Counted from the first letter of the stretch, positions 1-18,396 are shown. The stretch is DNA of 41,102 nt from a virus (UHGV-0210063); one strand, 5' to 3'. Notes: a model not told the origin generated them from the letters alone. Translations and numbers: made by a program.

Positions 1-135
1 ATCAATCGTTTGTTCACATTTCCAAAAAAAAAGTTTTCGAACCTGCGGCGATGTGAGGAAGGGTCAGGCGGCGGTACTGAGCAGCCAGGGTTGCAGAGAT
101 TTGACCCGCCCCTCCCCTACAGATGGGAACTGTTA

Positions 136-486
136 TCAATTGATGCGTTCGCGCGCTGTTTTTGCTTTATGACAGGGCCAGCACAGACTCTGCAGGTTAC
201 TGTCTGCATCTGTGCCACCATGAGCTTTCGGAATGATGTGGTCCACAGTTCTGGCTTCAACGGCTCTCCCATTGCGCAGGCAGTTCTGACACAGATGATT
301 ATCACGCTTCAGTATGCGCGCACGTATGGCATCCCATTTCGAGCCATAGCCACGCTGGTGGCGGCTCAGTCCGCGTTGATGCTGTACCCATCCTTCGCCA
401 CGATGTTTATCGCAGTAACCAGAACTGTCTGTGGTTGTACCTGCACATCCACGCTTACGGCAGGCGCGTGGGATTCGTGATGGCAT
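136..486 (-). CDS. HNH endonuclease (packaging-associated, HK97 gp74-like)
   Basis: 116 aa with Cys pairs and HNH motif (VDHIIPKAHGG...SNLQSLCWPCH); sits next to terminase across the genome end. Confidence 0.8.
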   Translation of the reverse strand: MPSRIPRACRKRGCAGTTTDSSGYCDKHRGEGWVQHQRGLSRHQRGYGSKWDAIRARILKRDNHLCQNCLRNGRAVEARTVDHIIPKAHGGTDADSNLQSLCWPCHKAKTARERIN

Positions 487-493
487 AAATACC

Positions 494-694
494 TCACACC
501 CTGTTCAGTTGAATGACGGGCTGATTCTCGATATGTTCTGCTGTCAGTCTGAAAGTCACAGTGACTGTTGGTGGCTCGCCTCCGCGTGACTCTGTCCTGG
601 CGGAAAGCTGCCCTTCCAGTAACTCACCATCAACTGCAATCCCATACCCTGCGAAATGTTTACCACGATACAGTTTAGCGACCTGAAACTTCAT
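494..694 (-). CDS. Hypothetical protein (66 aa)
   Basis: Intact ORF immediately upstream of HNH on the same strand; no recognisable motif. Confidence 0.4.
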   Translation of the reverse strand: MKFQVAKLYRGKHFAGYGIAVDGELLEGQLSARTESRGGEPPTVTVTFRLTAEHIENQPVIQLNRV

Positions 695-938
695 AACTCT
701 TCCTTTTAGACATGTTAGACGTGAACCTGTCGCACGGCAGAGTCGCCGAAAGTTTACGGTTTACCCAGGCTCACAGCTGAAAGCCTTTCTTAGATGTGCA
801 CATGCGATATGCTTTGAATGAATTATTAAAAACTTTACTCTTTTTCAAAATTTCGTATCCTGGCTCGTTAATGTTAAAGAATTAAACGTAAGAAAGTAGT
901 ATGTTGAATCGCTTATATCAAAATACATAGGACTCAAA

Positions 939-1424
939 ATGCCAGAACTCGTTGATCCAACAGACTCATTAATTAGTTTTCAATACGCCTTTTCTAATGG
1001 TCTGATTAAGCCTTCACCATGCATAGTTCACCCAAATATGAAGGTGCTTTTGGATGATGCAGAGGGTACACCACGGTTTACTTATGCATTCTTTGAAGGA
1101 GAAAATGTTAAAGGTGTTGCTATATATGTCCCTGCAGAGTTTGTTGAAGGTAAACCATGCTTTGGCGTTGGCTATGCAGTAGCCGATGAATATAAAGCGC
1201 AAGGCATCGGTACTCAACTTCTCATCGCCAGCATTGAAGAAATGCAATACGGATTTAGAAATTCCTTCAATGAATTCTATGTAGAGGCTATTGTCGGGGT
1301 TGGTAATCAAGCCTCCAACAAATTAGCTGCAAAAGTTTTATCTGATACTCCTGAGCCAGGGACAGATTCTTACTCAGGAAAACCTATCAATCAGTACATG
1401 AAACTTTTCAAAACCACAAAATAA
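939..1424 (+). CDS. GNAT-family N-acetyltransferase (moron)
   Basis: 161 aa; motif-A-like KAQGIGTQLL and motif-B-like NQASNKLAAKV; AGGA ribosome-binding site before ATG; AT-rich; opposite strand to late genes, between Rz and HNH. Confidence 0.6.
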   Translation: MPELVDPTDSLISFQYAFSNGLIKPSPCIVHPNMKVLLDDAEGTPRFTYAFFEGENVKGVAIYVPAEFVEGKPCFGVGYAVADEYKAQGIGTQLLIASIEEMQYGFRNSFNEFYVEAIVGVGNQASNKLAAKVLSDTPEPGTDSYSGKPINQYMKLFKTTK

Positions 1425-1435
1425 CTACCATTCTG

Positions 1436-1461
1436 GCGCAGATTTTTGCGCCTTTTCAGGT
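1436..1461 (+). terminator. Rho-independent terminator after GNAT gene
   Basis: Hairpin GGCGCA-gattttt-TGCGCC followed by TTTTCAGGTTT. Confidence 0.55.
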
Positions 1462-1602
1462 TTGCAGTTCACCTGCCACGCTTTGTTATGCGCCTGAATG
1501 TCCCGCTTCGTCTGTTGCATTATCATAAGTAATAGCGTAGGTTGACACCTTGGCTCTCTTTCGCCACCGGCGAATCTTTAGCGGATTATCCTTGGCCGTT
1601 TT

Positions 1603-2070
1603 TTATCTGAGACATTGCTCACGAATATATAGCTGTGCCCCTTCCAGTTGCTTCTGCATCGTCATCAACCGTTCTCTGAGGGTGAAATAATCCCGTTCAG
1701 CGGTGTCTGCCAGTCGGGGGCTGGTTGCATTATCCACGCTGGTGGGTCCGGTGGCTTCACGCACGGCTGCGGAGCAACTGGCATTGACCCGCAGGCGCTT
1801 ACGACCAGCGGCAACATCAGCGCGCAGAGTTTCATTTTCAGCTTTCGCATTGGCTAATTCTCTCGAGTACTTTGCATCGAGCGCAGCAACATCACGCTGA
1901 CGCTGTTGCATGTCAGCGATGGTGGCAGTCGCCTGCTTCAGCTCACTGACTTTTTTATCACGCTGTTCTTTGTAGGCGATGGCGTTATCACGGTAATGAT
2001 TGACCGCCCACGACAGGCAGACGATGGTGCAGATAACCAGAGTATAAATAATCGCTGCGACTCTGCTCAC
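1603..2070 (-). CDS. Rz: Spanin inner-membrane subunit Rz
   Basis: Close match to lambda Rz ([19 protein letters not shown]...[14 protein letters not shown]); probable GTG start overlapping endolysin stop; ORF track extends to 2085 with a TTG start. Confidence 0.85.
1665..1850 (-). CDS. Rz1: Spanin outer-membrane lipoprotein Rz1, embedded in Rz in another frame
   Basis: 61 aa, [20 protein letters not shown] lipobox, proline-rich, ends [12 protein letters not shown] as in lambda Rz1. Confidence 0.85.
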
Positions 2071-2600
2071 TGATCTATCCCCCAACAGGCTAATGCGCTT
2101 TCCTGGTCACGACGAATAACCTGTCCATAGCAGTTATTTGAACGTATGCGGCAATCGCGCCCACCATCTTTTATCCACCAGCGAATCGCCTCGCATGCGC
2201 CCTTACGATCACCGGCATTCAGCCGCTTATAAAACGTCGACGGGAAACACTTACCGGGGCCAATGTTATAGGGACAGAATGACGCTATACCCGCTTTCTG
2301 TGGTTCGGTCAGTGGTACTTTAATATTGCGCTCTACCCATGCCAGCGCCTTATCACGTTCAATAGCGTTAACCTGGTCGCATTTTTCCTTCGACAGCTTC
2401 ATTCCCGGTATGACGGGCTTACCATCCACCATTGTGGCACCCCGACAGATGGTCCAGATGCCGGCCCCATCGCGGTATGCCGTTGTGTGGTTACCTTCTT
2501 TTTCATCCAGAAACTGGTCGAGAATATCAGGCGCGGGCGCACCGACGGCAATCAGTGCCAGAACGGCAGCCGACAGGCCGTATCTGATTTTTGCGTTCAT
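2067..2600 (-). CDS. Endolysin, GH24 lysozyme with N-terminal SAR (signal-anchor-release) segment
   Basis: 177 aa; hydrophobic N-terminus [14 protein letters not shown] then lysozyme-like core; position between holin and Rz. Confidence 0.8.
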
Positions 2601-2663
2601 GGATATTTATCAGGATTTATCGGTTTCTGCCCACGGACAGGTTTATCTGTTCCGGTCAGTGAC

Positions 2664-3014
2664 TTAAGGTTGTGATTCCGGAGGAGTCTTCAGAGAACCA
2701 GTAATTCTTCCTGGTAGCTTTCCTTTGTAGGTTATCCACACATTCTGCGCATCTAAAATTACGGGGCGCTTTTCCGGCGGCTGCTCATCCCCTTCACATA
2801 ACCCGGCAGCAACATCCAGGAAGACCTGTCTGATGCTCCTTCTGGCTGCTGCCTCATAAAACTCCAGCGCGGCACCTTCAACACGGTCCAGCGAGATGTC
2901 CAGGTCAAAAATTTCACCGTCAAAGCGTTTTTTGTCCCGTAACGCTAAAGTTACCGTAACTTTATTCTCAAAATTGCGGATCCCTTTCACAATCAGTTCA
3001 TAGTTTTGAGTCAT
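2664..3014 (-). CDS. Hypothetical protein (116 aa) inserted between holin and endolysin
   Basis: Intact ORF tightly packed in the lysis cassette; acidic, no transmembrane segment, no recognisable motif. Confidence 0.5.
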   Translation of the reverse strand: MTQNYELIVKGIRNFENKVTVTLALRDKKRFDGEIFDLDISLDRVEGAALEFYEAAARRSIRQVFLDVAAGLCEGDEQPPEKRPVILDAQNVWITYKGKLPGRITGSLKTPPESQP

Positions 3015-3018
3015 TGAA

Positions 3019-3234
3019 TTACTCTCCCCGTGCAGCCTTACGCTTGTCTTCTCTGATTTTGAAGTACAGATTTGTCAGATAAGTCAGGAAGCCCAGAACC
3101 AGACTCCCCAGTACACCAATCGCAGCCCACTGTGAAGGACTGACCTGATCAAGCCACTGTAAAAACCAGTAGCCAGCACTGCCTGCGGAGGTGCCGTAGG
3201 CAATGCCCGTTGAAATTTTGTCCATGGATTTCAT
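3019..3234 (-). CDS. S: Class II holin (S21-type pinholin) with dual start
   Basis: 71 aa [30 protein letters not shown]...; near-identical to phage 21 S; two Met codons at positions 1 and 4. Confidence 0.9.
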
Positions 3235-3300
3235 AGCCTCACCTCCGCAAATAACGGATGGCGTAGTTTTACACTGAGAAATGAAAGGGATTTGAAAAGA

Positions 3301-3325
3301 AAAACCCGCAAAAGCGGGCGAAACG
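3301..3325 (-). terminator. Rho-independent terminator between tRNA array and holin
   Basis: Minus-strand hairpin CCCGC-TTTT-GCGGG followed by T-run. Confidence 0.5.
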
Positions 3326-3526
3326 ATATATACAGAAAGGAAAGCACTCTATCCAACAAACCACCCACAGTTAATCGGAATAAAAGCAGAGTGCTTATGA
3401 ATGATCGCCTGCTCGAAGGTTAGTATTTCTGCACAGCAATTTTGCAAAAAAAGGCGATCATTCATAACTTAAACGTCTTTCAGTCACTCCGGGATTTCCC
3501 ATCATCGCAGACTGAAAGACTCTAAC

Positions 3527-3601
<75 letters not shown>

Positions 3602-3604
3602 ATA

Positions 3605-3680
<76 letters not shown>

Positions 3681-3716
3681 ATCAAGTAGCGCGCATTCTA
3701 ATCGCGTGGCCGAAAT

Positions 3717-3801
<85 letters not shown>

Positions 3802-3809
3802 GGACTTGA

Positions 3810-3885
<76 letters not shown>

Positions 3886-3887
3886 AC

Positions 3888-3964
3888 TGGACCGCCACCG
3901 GGGACTCGAACCTCGCACACTCAACTTAAAGGGTTGACGCTCTTTCCTGATGAGCTAGTGGCGG
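3888..3964 (-). tRNA. Atypical tRNA-like gene, anticodon loop CCUUUAA (UUU anticodon, C at position 33)
   Basis: 77 nt; perfect 7-bp acceptor stem C1-G72, D-arm with GG, 5-bp anticodon stem, TTCGAGT T-loop, CCA; non-canonical C33 and one T-stem mismatch. Confidence 0.5.
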
Positions 3965-3965
3965 C

Positions 3966-4041
3966 TGGTGGCCCTTGCTGGATTTGAACCAGCGACCTGG
4001 CGATTATGAGTCGCTCGCTCTCACCACTGAGCTAAAGGGCC
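3966..4041 (-). tRNA. tRNA-Ile2 (anticodon CAU, ileX-like; elongator Met not excluded)
   Basis: 76 nt; closely resembles E. coli ileX as recalled, anticodon loop CUCAUAA. Confidence 0.8.
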
Positions 4042-6919: not shown

Positions 6920-7312
6920 CTACTGCCCTGTTTTAACGAAGTTTTTAAAGGAAACAACTGCCTGATAGGGGTTTGGTTGACAGCCAAACATATTATCGCA
7001 AAAAGGCTTGATGAAAATTCTTGAGGATCCATCTTCATTTGGCATTTTACTCACTTGATAAGCGAGGAATGGACTATTTGGAGAGGGATTATAAGTGGAA
7101 ATTAGCGTGTCTGTCGCCGTTTGAATTTTCCATGAGGAATTATTAGCCAACCAGAATTGCGCTCGTTTCCAATAAAAGTCACATTGCTTTTCATCATTAC
7201 ATGTTAGTGGCTTCATTGCTTCTGCTTTCAACGCTGGATCGACCTTTGCTGCACACCCTCCCAACATTACTGTTGCAATCATTACACCTGCGACTAAAAC
7301 AAGTTTCTTCAT
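6920..7312 (-). CDS. Lipoprotein, function unknown (moron)
   Basis: 130 aa; signal peptide MKKLVLVAGVMIATVMLGGC with lipobox; about 41% GC by eye; flanked by hairpin terminators. Confidence 0.7.
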   Translation of the reverse strand: MKKLVLVAGVMIATVMLGGCAAKVDPALKAEAMKPLTCNDEKQCDFYWKRAQFWLANNSSWKIQTATDTLISTYNPSPNSPFLAYQVSKMPNEDGSSRIFIKPFCDNMFGCQPNPYQAVVSFKNFVKTGQ

Positions 7313-7902: not shown

Positions 7903-8418
7903 TCATCGTAAAACATCCTCCACGCTTATCAGTCCATTTCGTTTCAGGTAATCCATCGCCATCTCCGGTAATTTGCAGTCTAGATTAGCTTTTTTCAGTT
8001 GACTGACCAGTCGTTTAACCCACATTGTTAATTCGCCAACCTGATTACTGGATGCTAGTGGATTGTCGGCTTTACCCAGAATGACAGCACAGCAGGCCTC
8101 TTTGAGTACCCAATCAACAGCATCTTTCCATGCTCCTGTTTCGACTGGTGGATTCTCACGCTTTACCTGTTCATAAAAGCGCACGGCTTTAACCAGTCCT
8201 TCTGATATCACAGGGACTGGCGGGGTAGTGAATAAGGCCTGAATCTCATAGCCCGGCCTGTCGTTGCACCCCTCTTTTGTCGGTACATATTTCCAGTCAC
8301 CAACCCACATCTTCTCCTGAAAGTCCGTAACGCCTTTTTTCACGTAGCGATATCGCCATGCAACTGGTTTTGCCTGCCCTGCCGTTTCATGCCCTTCCTG
8401 ATAATTAATCTCGCTCAT
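7903..8418 (-). CDS. Hypothetical nin-region protein (171 aa)
   Basis: Intact ORF with translationally coupled neighbours (ATGA overlaps). Confidence 0.5.
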   Translation of the reverse strand: MSEINYQEGHETAGQAKPVAWRYRYVKKGVTDFQEKMWVGDWKYVPTKEGCNDRPGYEIQALFTTPPVPVISEGLVKAVRFYEQVKRENPPVETGAWKDAVDWVLKEACCAVILGKADNPLASSNQVGELTMWVKRLVSQLKKANLDCKLPEMAMDYLKRNGLISVEDVLR

Positions 8419-8766: not shown

Positions 8767-9273
8767 TTCACTACCACCCTTTCGGGTGGCCTCCTGCTGT
8801 TCTGAGGGTGCAGAAATCCCTCCGGTTAAGGATTAAATTTTTAACAGTGCTAAATTTAATTATTCAGTTCTGGATTTTGTCACCCTGCGTATCCGTGCTT
8901 TCGCATTACGCTCAATCTGAATTAGCTTTTCTATATTTTTTCGCCTTTCCTGTTCCTCCTGGCGCAATAGTTTTACATCATCTGCCAGTCTGGTTTCTCT
9001 TTTCGCCACAGAGAGCATCCAGTCAAATGGCTCCACAACTGCACCGCAGATTTTACAGCGGACCTGACGCTCTTTTTCGTCAACCCGGACAGAAGCGTGA
9101 TGGCAGTATGGTCTTTCCTATGGCTCATAAAGAAAATTAACCTGATTACGTGGGTCATCCTCTTTTACCGGAAATAAAACAATATTACTTAACTCATCTT
9201 CTGGTTTTATTTCCATGCTCCTCTCCTTTGATGCGAATGCCAGCGGCAATTGAAGCCTGATAGCTAATTTCAC

Positions 9274-11621: not shown

Positions 11622-12260
11622 ATGAGCAAGCAAACAATATCTGAACGCATAACCCAACGTATGCATGCGCTAAACCTGAAAGGCAAAGACCTTGTCAATG
11701 CCACTGGCGCATCAAAAGGCTCCGTAAGTCAATGGATGAACGGTGGAGGAGCGCCGTCCTCGCGTTACATAAGTTCACTGGCAAAAATATTGAAAGTAAA
11801 CGAAAATTGGCTTCTTAATGGAGGAGAGTTAAATACAGGTGATTCGCTTGATCTATCTTTACCGCCGATAAAAACGGTTCCGCTACTATCACTTCAGCAG
11901 GCAGCAAGCTGGAGTGATTATATGAAAAATTCCTCAATAACCTCTTGTGTGCAGCTTGTCGGAGAAATCCCGGCCAATACCTTTGCAGTTGTTCTAGAGA
12001 GTGACAGTATGTCAACATCTGGTGGGGGAGTTTCCATCCCAAATGGTTCAACAGTTTTTGTTGATCCCGATCGAACCGTACAACCAGGAAATATTGTCCT
12101 TGCCTTACCCAAAGGGACCACAACACCTGTCATTCGTAAACTGGAGATAGAAGGGCCGGATATTCTTTTAGTCCCCACGAATCCTCGCTACCCTTCAATT
12201 ATGCTGGATGATCTATCTTGCATATTGGGCGTATGCTTTAAAATTCAACAAGATATTTAA
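11622..12260 (+). CDS. CI-like repressor (HTH plus S24 LexA-type peptidase domain)
   Basis: 212 aa; N-terminal HTH (GASKGSVSQWMNGG) and C-terminal domain; divergent from cro-like gene. Confidence 0.8.
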   Translation: MSKQTISERITQRMHALNLKGKDLVNATGASKGSVSQWMNGGGAPSSRYISSLAKILKVNENWLLNGGELNTGDSLDLSLPPIKTVPLLSLQQAASWSDYMKNSSITSCVQLVGEIPANTFAVVLESDSMSTSGGGVSIPNGSTVFVDPDRTVQPGNIVLALPKGTTTPVIRKLEIEGPDILLVPTNPRYPSIMLDDLSCILGVCFKIQQDI

Positions 12261-13221: not shown

Positions 13222-13653
13222 TTATCTTGAGTTCATCCAGAACTTATTATTGCAAGCGGGGCAAAAAGTACGAAAATGAGCATCAAGGCGCATTATTTCC
13301 ATTGGCTGCAGTACAGATATTACCTTTTTTCCAAAACATTGTGGGCAAAGATGCACTGTTATCTCGGTATCGCCTATAAATTGCTTCTTGGAATACACAA
13401 GAGTTCCAGAATCAAGCTTGTTAAGTTTGTAACCTTCCGCCTGTTGCTGAAAGTCTTCTATCTCTGCAATTTTTGCTTTGAGAGATGCGGCTTCTTCCTG
13501 ATAAGAGCGCACCATCTCAATGAGCGATACGCATTCAAACTGAACAGACGTAAGTTTTGAAAGCATATCGCTGACAGCGGAATTTATCTCAGTTTGAGTT
13601 TTGGCATTCAGAATACCCTTTGCCATTACCGCAGTTTCTTTGATTGCCGACAT
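13222..13653 (-). CDS. Hypothetical coiled-coil protein with C-terminal zinc ribbon; antisense moron inside the dicB operon
   Basis: 143 aa from ATG at 13653 (MSAIKETAVMAKG...); two CxxC pairs (CPQC, CPAC); AT-rich; ORF track extends to a GTG at 13797, but a promoter lies inside that extension. Confidence 0.6.
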   Translation of the reverse strand: MSAIKETAVMAKGILNAKTQTEINSAVSDMLSKLTSVQFECVSLIEMVRSYQEEAASLKAKIAEIEDFQQQAEGYKLNKLDSGTLVYSKKQFIGDTEITVHLCPQCFGKKVISVLQPMEIMRLDAHFRTFCPACNNKFWMNSR

Positions 13654-13689
13654 TGCTGCTGAGAACTCAACTATCACGTTACTTACTCT

Positions 13690-13746
13690 TCTCGTTGTTG
13701 GGGATATCCGGATTATACAAATTTCTTGTTGTTGGGGAATAACAGG
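13690..13746 (-). promoter_or_regulatory. Candidate promoter of the antisense moron with flanking direct repeats
   Basis: Extended -10 TGTATAAT (plus-strand 13712..13719) flanked by direct repeats TTGTTGGGGA at 13694..13703 and 13728..13737. Confidence 0.4.
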
Positions 13747-13988
13747 AACCACCTCGCCTGATGTGGTTAAAAGCAGGCACACAACACGAAAGCGCACGGC
13801 GAGGCTGTTAGCTCATAAATGGTCTGTCGTTAAATTTTCGTCGACCGTGCGCTCTCGGTTGTGGCACTCCGCGAAATGGCGCGACGGTAAGTATGGCGGG
13901 GTTATTCCTTCCCCGTTGAGGACACCGGGTTGTCAGGTTGACCATACGCTTAAGTGACAACCCCGCTGCAACGCCCTCTGTTATCAAT

Positions 13989-14041: not shown

Positions 14042-14215
14042 TTTTTAAAGTGAATTTTGTGATGCGGTGAATGCGGCTAAGCGCACGCGGAACAGTTAAA
14101 ACCAAAAACAGTGTTATGGGTGGATTCTCTGTATCCGGCGTTAATTGTTAACTGGTTAACGTCACCTGGAGGCACCAGGCACCGCATCACAAAATTCATT
14201 GTTGAGGACGCGATA

Positions 14216-14404
14216 ATGGAAACGTTATTACCAAACGTTAATACGTCTGAAGGCTGTTTTGAAATTGGCGTCACTATCAGTAACCCTGTATTTACTGAAG
14301 ATGCCATTAACAAGAGAAAACACGAACGGGAGTTATTAAATAAAATATGCATTCTTTCAATGCTGGCCCGTTTACGTCCGATACAAAAAGGATGCTGGCA
14401 ATGA
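14216..14404 (+). CDS. dicB: Cell division inhibitor DicB
   Basis: 62 aa METLLPNVNTSEGCFEIGVTISNPVFTEDAINKRK...; internal start of ORF 14111..14404. Confidence 0.85.
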   Translation: METLLPNVNTSEGCFEIGVTISNPVFTEDAINKRKHERELLNKICILSMLARLRPIQKGCWQ

Positions 14405-14589
14405 ATCCAGTATTTGCACTTATTCTGACGGTTTTTCTTGTTTCCGGAGAGCCAGTTGATATTGCAGTCAGTGTTCACAGAACAATGCAGGAATGTATGG
14501 CCGCAGCAACCGAACAGAAAATTCCAGGCAACTGTTATCAGGTCGATAAAGTTATTCACCAGGATAACGAAATCCCGGCAGGATTTTAA
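14392..14589 (+). CDS. ydfD: YdfD-like small membrane protein
   Basis: MLAMNPVFALILTVFLVSGEPVDIAVSVHRTMQECMAAATEQ...; overlaps dicB stop. Confidence 0.7.
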   Translation: MLAMNPVFALILTVFLVSGEPVDIAVSVHRTMQECMAAATEQKIPGNCYQVDKVIHQDNEIPAGF

Positions 14590-14682
14590 AACAGCACCGT
14601 AATAAATATCCAGTTTCATTCTTATATGTCAGCAATGGCAGAGATTTGTTCACCCTTAAATCTGTGATGAGGTTTATCAATA

Positions 14683-17167: not shown

Positions 17168-17371
17168 ATGAGCAGCTTATTTTTAACCGAAGATGAATTG
17201 CTAATATTAACGGGCTGCAAATATGCAAGCCACCAGCGAAAATGGTTAATGGAAAACGGGCTTCCGTTCTATACCAATCGTAGTGGCAAACCGATTGTCA
17301 GCCGGGATCTATTTACCTGCAATAAAACTTTACCACCACGCGAGGTAGAGCCGAATTTTGGTGCGATCTGA
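17168..17371 (+). CDS. xis: Putative excisionase (DUF4224-like)
   Basis: 67 aa directly upstream of and overlapping int start; LTEDELLILTGCKY...NRSGKPIV pattern. Confidence 0.55.
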   Translation: MSSLFLTEDELLILTGCKYASHQRKWLMENGLPFYTNRSGKPIVSRDLFTCNKTLPPREVEPNFGAI

Positions 17372-18396
17372 TGGGAAGACGAAGGAAAAATCCTGAACAC
17401 GAAAAATTACCTCCAAATGTATACCCAAATAAATATAGTTATGTATGGAAACCAACATCCAGAGAATCTGTCACACTAACCGCCATCAAGGATGGTTTAG
17501 CTGCTTTATGGAAAAAGTATGAGGAAACTGTAAATAATCGCGATCGTGCAATGACATTCGGTCGCTTGTGGGAAAAATTCCTCGCCAGCGCCTATTACAG
17601 TGACCTTAGTCCAAGAACACAAAAAGATTATCTGCAACATCAAAAAAAGTTGCTTGCCGTATTCGGTAAGGTACCAGCGGATTCCATAAAACCAGAACAC
17701 ATCCGTCGATACATGGACAAAAGAGGGGAGCAGAGTAAAACGCAAGCCAACCATGAAAAAAGCAGTATGTCCCGTGTTTACAGTTGGGGGTATGAGCGAG
17801 GGTACGTCAAGGCTAACCCATGTGCAGGTGTAAGTAAATTCAAGGCCAAAAACCGCGAACGATATGTAACCGACAAAGAATACCAGGCAGTATTAAGCGT
17901 TGCACCTCTTCCTGTTTTTATCGCAATGGAAATTGCCTATCTGTGTGCAGCGAGGGTTTCCGATGTGTTATCGCTGAAATGGGAACAGATTGGAAACGAC
18001 GGGATATTCATCCAGCAAGGGAAAACCGGAAAAAAACAGATAAAAGCATGGAGTCCACGATTACAGGCAGCGATCGAAAAAGCAAAACAGTTACCAAAAT
18101 CTGCCTATGTGATCAGCAATCAATACGGCAACCGATATATGTACAAAGGCTTTAACGAAATGTGGGTAGAAGCAAGAAATCGTGCTGGAAAAATTTCAGG
18201 TATTTTAACCGACTTCACCTTTCATGATCTGAAGGCGAAAGGAATTTCAGACTATGAAGGAAGCAGCCGGGATAAGCAACTTTTCTCTGGTCACAAAACC
18301 GAAGGGCAAGTGCTAATCTATGACAGGAAGGTTAAAGTTTCACCAACACTTGATGTCCCGTTACCTGAAAATATTCCAAGAAAATATTCCAAGTAA
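17371..18396 (+). CDS. int: Tyrosine-type site-specific integrase
   Basis: 341 aa; C-terminal catalytic region (HDLKAKG...GHKTEGQVLIYDRK); adjacent to tRNA-Ser fragment. Confidence 0.85.
   Translation: MGRRRKNPEHEKLPPNVYPNKYSYVWKPTSRESVTLTAIKDGLAALWKKYEETVNNRDRAMTFGRLWEKFLASAYYSDLSPRTQKDYLQHQKKLLAVFGKVPADSIKPEHIRRYMDKRGEQSKTQANHEKSSMSRVYSWGYERGYVKANPCAGVSKFKAKNRERYVTDKEYQAVLSVAPLPVFIAMEIAYLCAARVSDVLSLKWEQIGNDGIFIQQGKTGKKQIKAWSPRLQAAIEKAKQLPKSAYVISNQYGNRYMYKGFNEMWVEARNRAGKISGILTDFTFHDLKAKGISDYEGSSRDKQLFSGHKTEGQVLIYDRKVKVSPTLDVPLPENIPRKYSK

Follow-up and report, generated by a model that had tools for sequence, protein, structure and literature searches.

The window analysed here is the whole of UHGV-0210063, 41,102 nucleotides, and constitutes a complete cos-ended temperate phage genome (41.1 kb) with E. 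coli as host. Near the start of the window a single plus-strand ORF for a GNAT-family N-acyltransferase lies amid minus-strand lysis and HNH endonuclease genes, and the far end of the genome is reached by the tail, head and terminase genes. The features discussed below are the following, with coordinates counted from the first letter of the window:

136-486, minus strand: HNH endonuclease gene
494-694, minus strand: 66-aa ORF
715-1462: mobile cargo cassette (moron) of ~0.75 kb, made up of a conserved 5' region, the GNAT ORF and a terminator-like hairpin; delimited by blastn boundaries and GC content
715-830: conserved GC-rich block at the 5' edge of the cassette, with an imperfect inverted repeat and a second hairpin
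831-938, plus strand: AT-rich upstream region (31-38% GC) with the Shine-Dalgarno sequence at 929-932; presumed promoter region
939-1424 (stop included), plus strand: GNAT-family N-acyltransferase CDS, ATG start, 161 aa; assigned by profile, fold, selection and RefSeq identity
1425-1526, minus strand: remnant (33 codons) of an o-spanin lipoprotein gene that has full-length versions in other phages
1435-1456, plus strand: intrinsic-terminator-like hairpin, stem 1435-1441/1446-1452, loop 1442-1445, then UUUU
1603-2085, minus strand: Rz
1665-1850, minus strand: Rz1
2067-2600, minus strand: lysozyme gene
3019-3234, minus strand: holin gene
11622-12260: CI-like repressor gene
17371-18396: integrase gene

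The GNAT ORF is antisense to the late operon, with Rz/Rz1 on one side and the 66-aa ORF and the HNH gene on the other. Because the genome is complete and cos-ended, the gene lies approximately 1 kb from the right-hand terminus of the phage DNA, where lambda has bor. Within 244 bp upstream and 178 bp downstream of it there is no other plus-strand ORF of at least 30 aa. The 66-aa ORF, which is divergent from the GNAT gene, accompanies only the E. coli copies.

The protein belongs to the GNAT superfamily (PF00583/clan CL0257) by profile, motif A and mixed alpha/beta fold. The Pfam model Acetyltransf_1 (PF00583) matches residues 37-132 with 27.4 bits, above the gathering score of 20.7 (E 4.4e-6), and Acetyltransf_3 and Acetyltransf_7 give weaker matches below the Pfam threshold. 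The ATG start codon is supported because the N-terminus MPE(L/I)VDP is conserved in 37 homologues. A Shine-Dalgarno sequence, AGGA, is present at 929-932, 6 nt 5' of the ATG, in keeping with the ribosome-binding site reported in the preliminary description of this DNA. Pairwise comparison with nine homologous cassettes gives dN/dS values of 0.10-0.16 at dS up to 1.25, which excludes a chance ORF. Identical DNA in RefSeq encodes WP_001114684.1, annotated as "GNAT family N-acetyltransferase", and the GNAT call itself is therefore not new; a literature search with the RefSeq accession and keyword combinations returned no paper on this protein. The whole 700-1600 stretch occurs at >=99% identity in 63 of 5,426 complete E. 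coli genomes, in all of them on the chromosome. What is new here is the delimitation of the cassette and the conservation of its position and strand across unrelated phage backbones, as well as the size of the GNAT family, its ecology in mobile elements and defence islands, and its fusion to a STAND protein.

The boundaries of the cassette were defined by blastn of window positions 1-2200 against GNAT loci with unrelated flanks. At least nine loci share homology that begins at 715 and stops at 1514 (the start at 715 is seen in L012, L044-46, L049, L051, L053, L055 and L057). The base composition of the cassette deviates as well. GC content is 31% at 801-1000, which bears out the AT-rich upstream region of the preliminary description, and 38-42% within the ORF, as compared with 50-58% in the flanks. 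Comparison with the GNAT-less Escherichia phage vB_EcoS-689R5 reveals flanks (1-486 and 1463-3681) that are 96-98% identical and a variable segment, window 487-1462, in which 976 bp are replaced by 965 bp encoding a plus-strand YfbU-domain protein and a minus-strand 88-aa ORF. This is a classic presence/absence, cargo-swap polymorphism between close relatives, with the insert placed amid backbone genes.

The right-hand homology extends beyond the cargo. The 51 nt at 1464-1514 retain 84-86% identity even in phages with a GNAT of only 57% identity, and the 136-bp stretch 1463-1598 is common to 208 GNAT-less E. coli genomes. The o-spanin gene is full-length with a lipobox (LIASC) in L012, L049 and L044. 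Positions 1463-1514 are the 3' end of this gene and lie outside the cargo, and we read this stretch as a putative homologous right-hand anchor for cargo exchange. The sharp cassette bounds and the conserved o-spanin remnant illustrate the swapping of cargo at the lambdoid lysis-packaging junction.

At the left-hand side, a 224-bp 5' region that includes the 715-830 block travels with the ORF in all close cassettes. The whole region diverges less than the synonymous sites of the ORF; for 715-830 the divergence is p = 0.17 as compared with pS = 0.54. Within the block, the segments 721-729 (GTGAACCTG) and 766-774 (CAGGCTCAC) form an imperfect inverted repeat, and a second, short hairpin lies at approximately 797-812. 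A structured RNA or riboswitch was considered and rejected: the block has no Rfam match at E up to 1, the RNAalifold covariation term is positive (unfavourable) and lends no covariation support, and the fold of the single sequence does not surpass that of shuffles. No conserved ORF was seen when the alignment of the block was inspected; the one small candidate, a minus-strand GTG frame of 19 codons in the consensus, is interrupted in the window by a stop codon. In the AT-rich part (831-938) the aligned close cassettes share the blocks CTTCAAAATTTC, CTCATTAAT.TCAAAGAAT, GTATTTTGAATCGC and AGAGGA. The promoter implied by the preliminary description was not located by consensus. A scan of the plus strand detected no sigma-70-like promoter at >=9/12, and a relaxed scan gave no 8/12 candidate conserved across ten cassettes. 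A promoter is assumed to lie within the conserved 224-bp 5' region.

The 3' end of the cassette is marked by a G+C-rich hairpin of 7 bp (dG -14.8 kcal/mol, z -2.87 as compared with shuffles), whose stem is kept and whose loop is variable in 10 homologous cassettes. A strict terminator scan, which needs five T residues, does not call this hairpin because its U-run has only four. The terminator claimed earlier corresponds to this conserved, terminator-like hairpin at 1435-1452 followed by UUUU, within the end at 1461 given in that description.

The lack of a detected promoter and the gene remnant flanking the cassette speak for a decaying passenger without current function. This explanation is extremely improbable and is effectively refuted by the selection analysis (dN/dS of 0.10-0.16 over dS up to 1.25). 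Moreover, the ORF is intact in 35 of 35 phage-type loci, the catalytic-type residues are invariant across 164 family members, and the 5' region and the terminator hairpin are conserved. We show that 715-1462 is a self-contained moron between the lysis and packaging modules, encoding a solitary GNAT-fold enzyme under strong purifying selection. That the moron is an active one, with a functioning GNAT, is very probable.

The 35 phage-type loci comprise 30 IMG/VR contigs and genomes of Yersinia, Leclercia, Dryocola and Enterobacter, with GNAT identities of 46-100%. In these loci most or all of the flanking ORFs are on the opposite strand from the GNAT gene (L062 is mixed), and where the flanks could be typed, the gene separates lysis genes from packaging genes. 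The antisense placement between Rz/Rz1 and HNH/terminase genes in a bor-like slot, proposed earlier for this phage, is borne out by the gene map. The immediate neighbours fall into approximately 12 different protein clusters on each side, and at least 12 different phage backbones hold the GNAT in the lysis-to-packaging slot. These backbones have three types of endolysin (GH19, GH108 and GH24) and at least three terminase types (P27/Terminase_4 with HNH, lambda GpA-type TerL, and Terminase_2 TerS). In Yersinia the GNAT gene is found between TerS and TerL.

The cassette has many characteristics of the lambda bor-type morons. Both occupy the slot that follows Rz/Rz1 and precedes the packaging genes and cos, and both are single genes of deviant composition that are opposite in orientation to the late operon and polymorphic for presence/absence. 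The bor-type morons have their own terminator, and the counterpart in the GNAT cassette would be the conserved hairpin with U4, which the strict scan does not call. The products differ, as lambda bor encodes an outer-membrane lipoprotein whereas the product of the GNAT cassette is a cytoplasmic enzyme.

All-against-all BLAST identified no conserved neighbour or partner gene in 26 diverse and 35 phage loci. Because no neighbour of the GNAT is conserved across loci, it has no antitoxin, regulator or partner, and its earlier description as a solitary gene without an adjacent antitoxin-like ORF can be extended to more than 50 loci. The GNAT toxins TacT, AtaT, ItaT and KacT share with it the fold, a similar length and carriage by mobile elements. 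However, these toxins have as partner a small RHH or DUF1778 antitoxin gene in the same operon, adjacent and usually overlapping, which the phage GNAT lacks, and no specific similarity of the phage GNAT to type II toxin-antitoxin GNAT toxins was found. A GNAT/RHH toxin-antitoxin pair (TacAT, AtaRT, ItaRT, KacAT) is rejected on both grounds. A solitary toxin or abortive-infection effector of the TacT/AtaT/ItaT type, which would acetylate aminoacyl-tRNA, stop translation and be restrained without a neighbouring antitoxin, is very unlikely.

The structure prediction suggested in the preliminary description gave a confident result. The AlphaFold2 model, built from 37 homologues, has a mean pLDDT of 91.9 and a GNAT fold consisting of a helix (7-19), four strands (34-81), a helix (90-105), a strand (112-120), a helix (124-133) and two C-terminal strands. 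The canonical GNAT topology begins with beta1-alpha1-alpha2, usually walling a small-molecule pocket. Typical GNATs, including RimI and the NATs, have these elements, whereas the phage protein is predicted to have a GNAT core in which a single N-terminal helix replaces them.

Motif A follows strand beta4 and binds the pyrophosphate of acetyl-CoA. In the window it reads K86-A-Q-G89-I-G91 (consensus R/Q-x-x-G-x-G/A). Conservation was determined in 164 family members of 140-175 aa. Position 86 is R in 87%, K in 6% and Q in 6%. R46 and N123 are conserved in 100% of the members, G89 in 99%, D39 and S126 in 98%, A80 in 97%, E116 in 95%, and P7, Y49, C74, Y79, D143, S146, G147 and Y153 in about 90%. 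The preliminary description had named failure of the GNAT profiles and loss of the acetyl-CoA binding residues as grounds for abandoning its call. Neither occurred, as PF00583 matches and G89 is almost invariant; with the Pfam match above threshold, motif A kept and a predicted GNAT fold, the identification stands. Judged by its residues the enzyme looks catalytically competent. The tyrosine on helix alpha4, which we take to be the usual general acid of GNATs and which is usual in RimI and the NATs, is replaced by alanine (Ala130) in the phage GNAT family.

The best profile matches in the PDB are the Sulfolobus SSO0209/Ard1 N-terminal acetyltransferase and an archaeal NAT (E 6e-4), with approximately 40 residues covered. 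In this alignment E116, the active-site-type glutamate of the family, corresponds to Glu127 of Sulfolobus Ard1. Glu127 is in contact with residue 1 of the substrate and coincides in superposition with His112 of hNaa50 (PMC5390088). The relationship to RimI/RimJ/RimL and Ard1/Naa10/Naa50 is distant, with an identity of only 11-23% and a match that covers approximately 40 residues by sequence and approximately 120 of 161 by fold. The family-specific D39, R46, Y49, C74 and D143-x-x-S-G have no identifiable counterpart in the RimI/NAT proteins. The structural matches are all generic, and the fold ranking mixes protein and small-molecule GNATs. For this reason neither sequence nor fold reveals the substrate; for the sequence, the preliminary description had concluded the same.

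Acetylation of a small molecule has therefore to be weighed, since the fold matches do not discriminate. In this case the moron would be a gene of lysogenic conversion or detoxification, acting on an antibiotic, a toxic aminoacyl-nucleotide, a polyamine or an amino-acid analogue. MccE and RimL act in this way on processed microcin C, a toxic aminoacyl-nucleotide. The aminoglycoside acetyltransferases AAC(6'), AAC(3) and AAC(2') share the GNAT fold with the phage protein, with generic similarity only, and the PDB profile search includes meta-AAC0020 at E 0.62. NCBIfam is the library by which NCBI names proteins and includes its resistance models. Of the profile searches, Pfam matches with PF00583; the best NCBIfam hit reaches only 11.6 bits, against a cut-off of 460, and is to an unrelated model. 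A recognised aminoglycoside acetyltransferase is rejected for lack of an NCBIfam match. Several further observations argue against a small-molecule acceptor of any kind: the closest PDB relatives by sequence acetylate protein N-termini, the predicted single N-terminal helix may suggest an open acceptor site, and associations with defence islands and a STAND protein (described below) are unexpected for a metabolic detoxifier. Small-molecule detoxification is, in our estimate, rather improbable.

Instead, the enzyme would use acetyl-CoA to acetylate (acylate) an amino group on a macromolecule, most likely a protein. RimI-like GNAT domains predicted to modify proteins are a theme in the conflict proteins of phages and conjugative elements (PMC5512222). 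This precedent, the RimI/NAT-like affinity and the presumably open N-terminal architecture point to a protein acceptor, which we consider somewhat probable.

The GNAT family is compact and widespread, has no studied member, and its carriers are almost exclusively prophages, plasmids and defence islands. In 5.8 billion proteins a word-indexed search detected 39 clusters, and exhaustive profile searching of 1.84 billion representatives yielded 593 at E <=1e-3 and 452 at <=1e-10; these roughly 600 family clusters are clusters at 50% identity. Nearly all members are full-length solitary proteins of approximately 160 aa. They are present in Enterobacteriaceae, Yersinia, Pseudomonas, Stutzerimonas, Janthinobacterium, Agrobacterium, Caulobacteraceae, many Acidobacteriota and a Saccharimonadales MAG. 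By tblastn no member was identified in 50,697 cultured phage genomes.

Few fusions are found in the family. P0138 carries a C-terminal SEC-C motif. P0097 (1,098 aa) combines an Mrr_cat nuclease, an nSTAND1 NTPase and a helical region with a C-terminal GNAT that keeps most of the family-conserved residues, with S146 and G147 replaced. The gene for P0097 adjoins a SIR2_2 gene; it is a single case on a 6.7-kb metagenomic contig.

Members are also carried by 34 plasmids, of Pseudomonas (14), Agrobacterium, Aeromonas, Vibrio and others. In P. aeruginosa p382 the GNAT gene lies in a long co-directional array of small hypothetical genes behind a small integrase-like gene, with a Pycsar system 3 kb away. 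In a P. syringae plasmid it follows genes for ParA, an SRAP peptidase and an integrase-like protein and precedes CsrA. In Agrobacterium pAt2 it is flanked by a TIR protein, an S8 peptidase and AAA ATPase pair, a DUF6088 protein and another GNAT, and in an Aeromonas plasmid it is near an Abi gene, UvrD and traF. Many distant family members are located among housekeeping genes.

The neighbourhoods were scanned in 18 diverse genomic loci, yielding 140 ORFs within 3.5 kb of the GNAT. PADLOC recognises among these neighbours Drt3b (L029, E 1e-195; DRT3) and PDC-S21 (L015, E 2e-119; DUF4917), as well as PDC-S19, PycC, PycTIR, TIR effectors, PD-T4-6 and a type II methyltransferase. Pycsar neighbours the GNAT in L064, and in L066 and L067 a TIR gene, an S8-peptidase/AAA pair and Abi genes are nearby. 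The GNAT protein itself matches none of the defence models of PADLOC-DB v2. Pfam matches in the 140 ORFs include SSB and ArdC-N, each in two loci, DUF4917 and a resolvase, and also plain housekeeping genes. Family members are thus solitary accessory genes on mobile elements and in defence islands, with neighbours of both the defence and the counter-defence kind. These contexts do not decide on which side the GNAT acts.

Our best explanation, offered tentatively and with rather less than even confidence as a whole, is a lysogen-expressed, protein-directed acetyltransferase moron that functions in mobile-element conflict. The GNAT gene would be transcribed in the lysogen, independently of the late operon, from a promoter in the conserved 224-bp 5' region; as no promoter was identified, we infer lysogen expression only from the orientation. 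The enzyme would act in the conflict of prophage and host with invading elements, providing exclusion or defence by protein modification, and its role would be neither antibiotic resistance nor toxin-antitoxin addiction. A slight lean towards lysogen benefit or exclusion is based on the orientation and slot, which are typical of lysogenic-conversion morons, on the absence of the family from cultured, mostly virulent, phages, and on the association with defence islands and the one STAND fusion. That the gene is on the side of defence or lysogen benefit, rather than counter-defence, is possible and somewhat doubtful.

The opposite assignment is that the GNAT acetylates and inactivates a host immune protein. 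AcrVA5, a GNAT anti-CRISPR of approximately 92 aa, acetylates and inactivates Cas12a and would be the model for such an activity. Lambda DNA exits the head right end first, and the GNAT gene is approximately 1 kb from the right end of a cos genome. By analogy with the anti-defence genes of plasmid leading regions, a gene at the cos end that is packaged last and ejected first could be suited to counter-defence, and its own promoter would allow it to fire at once on DNA entry. The ArdC-N and SSB neighbours fit this assignment, as do the Pseudomonas plasmids in which a small integrase-like gene precedes a long run of co-directional small hypothetical ORFs. So does L011, in which an AcrVA2-like gene (PF26125) is located two genes 5' of the GNAT and NAD-salvage genes (NadE, NAPRTase, nicotinamidase, NMNAT-like and NUDIX) are downstream. 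In addition, 17 of the 34 member-bearing plasmids are conjugative; in the full map of one of these, NZ_CP006257.1, oriT was not placeable relative to the GNAT.

Precedents for counter-defence are AcrVA5 and the GNAT domains of polyvalent proteins, which are likewise small GNATs of mobile elements and have been shown or proposed to modify a protein of the opposing side. AcrVA5 has no detectable specific relationship to the phage GNAT in sequence or structure. The polyvalent-protein domains (PMC5512222) match it only generically, at BFVD ranks 31-41. Loci of the AcrVA5 type carry an adjacent aca HTH gene or other acr genes; no aca-like HTH gene is adjacent to the phage GNAT in the window or in the phage-type loci, and among the family only the distant L011 has an AcrVA2-like neighbour. 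E. coli is without type V-A CRISPR, so any target would differ from Cas12a. Furthermore, the family is absent from the 50,697 cultured phage genomes, yet anti-defence genes are common in virulent phages, and defence genes are at least as frequent as counter-defence genes among the GNAT neighbours. Counter-defence is a strong rival reading, though in our estimate fairly unlikely.

A small-molecule detoxifier would be an ordinary lysogenic-conversion gene. A role in phage-host or plasmid-host conflict would add a catalytic single-gene system to a repertoire that consists mostly of binders and nucleases. To our knowledge, enzymatic examples of protein acetylation in such conflicts are rare, and AcrVA5 is the main one. 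The boldest form of the idea is that the GNAT family is an unrecognised single-gene weapon that acetylates and thereby disables an opponent's protein. It would be stationed at the first-entering cos end, as a phage equivalent of the anti-defence genes in plasmid leading regions, or expressed from the prophage so as to exclude rivals, and its domain would have been captured as C-terminal module by an Mrr-STAND immune protein; we regard this as unlikely. The cassette is cheap to test because it measures only 0.75 kb and is present in 63 sequenced E. coli strains.

The junction between the lysis genes and the HNH gene, which holds the GNAT cassette, is a cargo hot spot, because other cargo occupies the same slot in a close relative, Escherichia phage vB_EcoS-689R5 (ON470583.1; positions 2536-3500 of L063, its locus in our comparison). 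There the slot contains a gene for a 179-aa YfbU-domain protein and an 88-aa ORF, and the YfbU-domain gene is likewise antisense to the late operon. In the window, three features accompany or flank the GNAT gene in the slot:

494-694, minus strand: 66-aa ORF between the GNAT cassette and the HNH gene
715-830: GC-rich block that accompanies the GNAT gene and contains an imperfect inverted repeat (arms at 721-729 and 766-774)
1425-1526, minus strand: remnant (33 codons) of a gene for an o-spanin lipoprotein, derived from another lysis cassette

The final 51 nt of the o-spanin remnant (1464-1514) are kept across very different phages, and this conserved stretch marks where the cargo slot ends on its right side. 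Full-length copies of the o-spanin gene that encode a lipobox are present in three of the compared loci, L012 (8493-8747), L049 and L044. On the left side of the cassette, the GC-rich block evolves approximately three times more slowly than the synonymous sites of the GNAT ORF. A search of the block for a conserved ORF, an Rfam match, covariation and excess folding energy found none of these. Possible roles for the block are those of a regulator site, of a leader or of a recombination anchor. The 66-aa ORF (cluster c13) has no Pfam match, falls within the segment that is variable relative to vB_EcoS-689R5 and has been seen only alongside the E. coli copies of the GNAT cassette.

Variable or possibly accessory genes are also found elsewhere in the window:

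3527-4041, minus strand: array of six tRNA genes between the holin and the Q antiterminator
6920-7312, minus strand: early-region ORF
7903-8418, minus strand: early-region ORF
8808-9140, plus strand: early-region ORF
13222-13797, minus strand: early-region ORF
14077-14619, minus strand: early-region ORF

The tRNA array consists of Gly-TCC, Thr-TGT, Tyr-GTA, a second Thr-TGT, Lys-TTT and Met-CAT. The last of these is probably of the lysidine Ile2 type, since its homologue is annotated as tRNA-Ile in RefSeq. Related phages carry differing subsets (four in the lysogen NZ_AP017610.1 and three in vB_EcoS-689R5), and therefore the array is itself variable cargo. The five early-region ORFs (110-191 aa) have no match in a Pfam search. 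They may be further accessory genes because mosaic differences between the window and its closest complete-genome relative fall in exactly these segments.

Members of the GNAT family also occur in other contexts. A metagenomic contig (SRR30787003_439299; L069, 295-4740) encodes a 1,098-aa protein with the domain order Mrr_cat nuclease, nSTAND1 NTPase, helical region and GNAT, in which the C-terminal GNAT domain retains most conserved residues and has S146/G147 replaced. A SIR2_2 gene directly precedes it. The fusion has an Avs-like immune architecture with a putatively enzymatic C-terminal module. A distant family member lies in an island of GCA_015665085.1 (contig JADGMW010000005.1; L011, 4163-12486), alongside an AcrVA2-like protein, a CYTH protein, a RecA-dependent nuclease, RNase H and a full NAD-salvage set (NadE, NAPRTase, an isochorismatase/nicotinamidase-like protein, a nucleotidyltransferase and NUDIX). 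This gene set resembles the counter-defence pathways that work by NAD reconstitution. In a Yersinia prophage (L005), a 46%-identical GNAT sits between TerS and TerL. The same prophage encodes, just upstream of the holin, a Mom-family protein (PF25680; 9698-10426), which is another enzyme with a GNAT fold.
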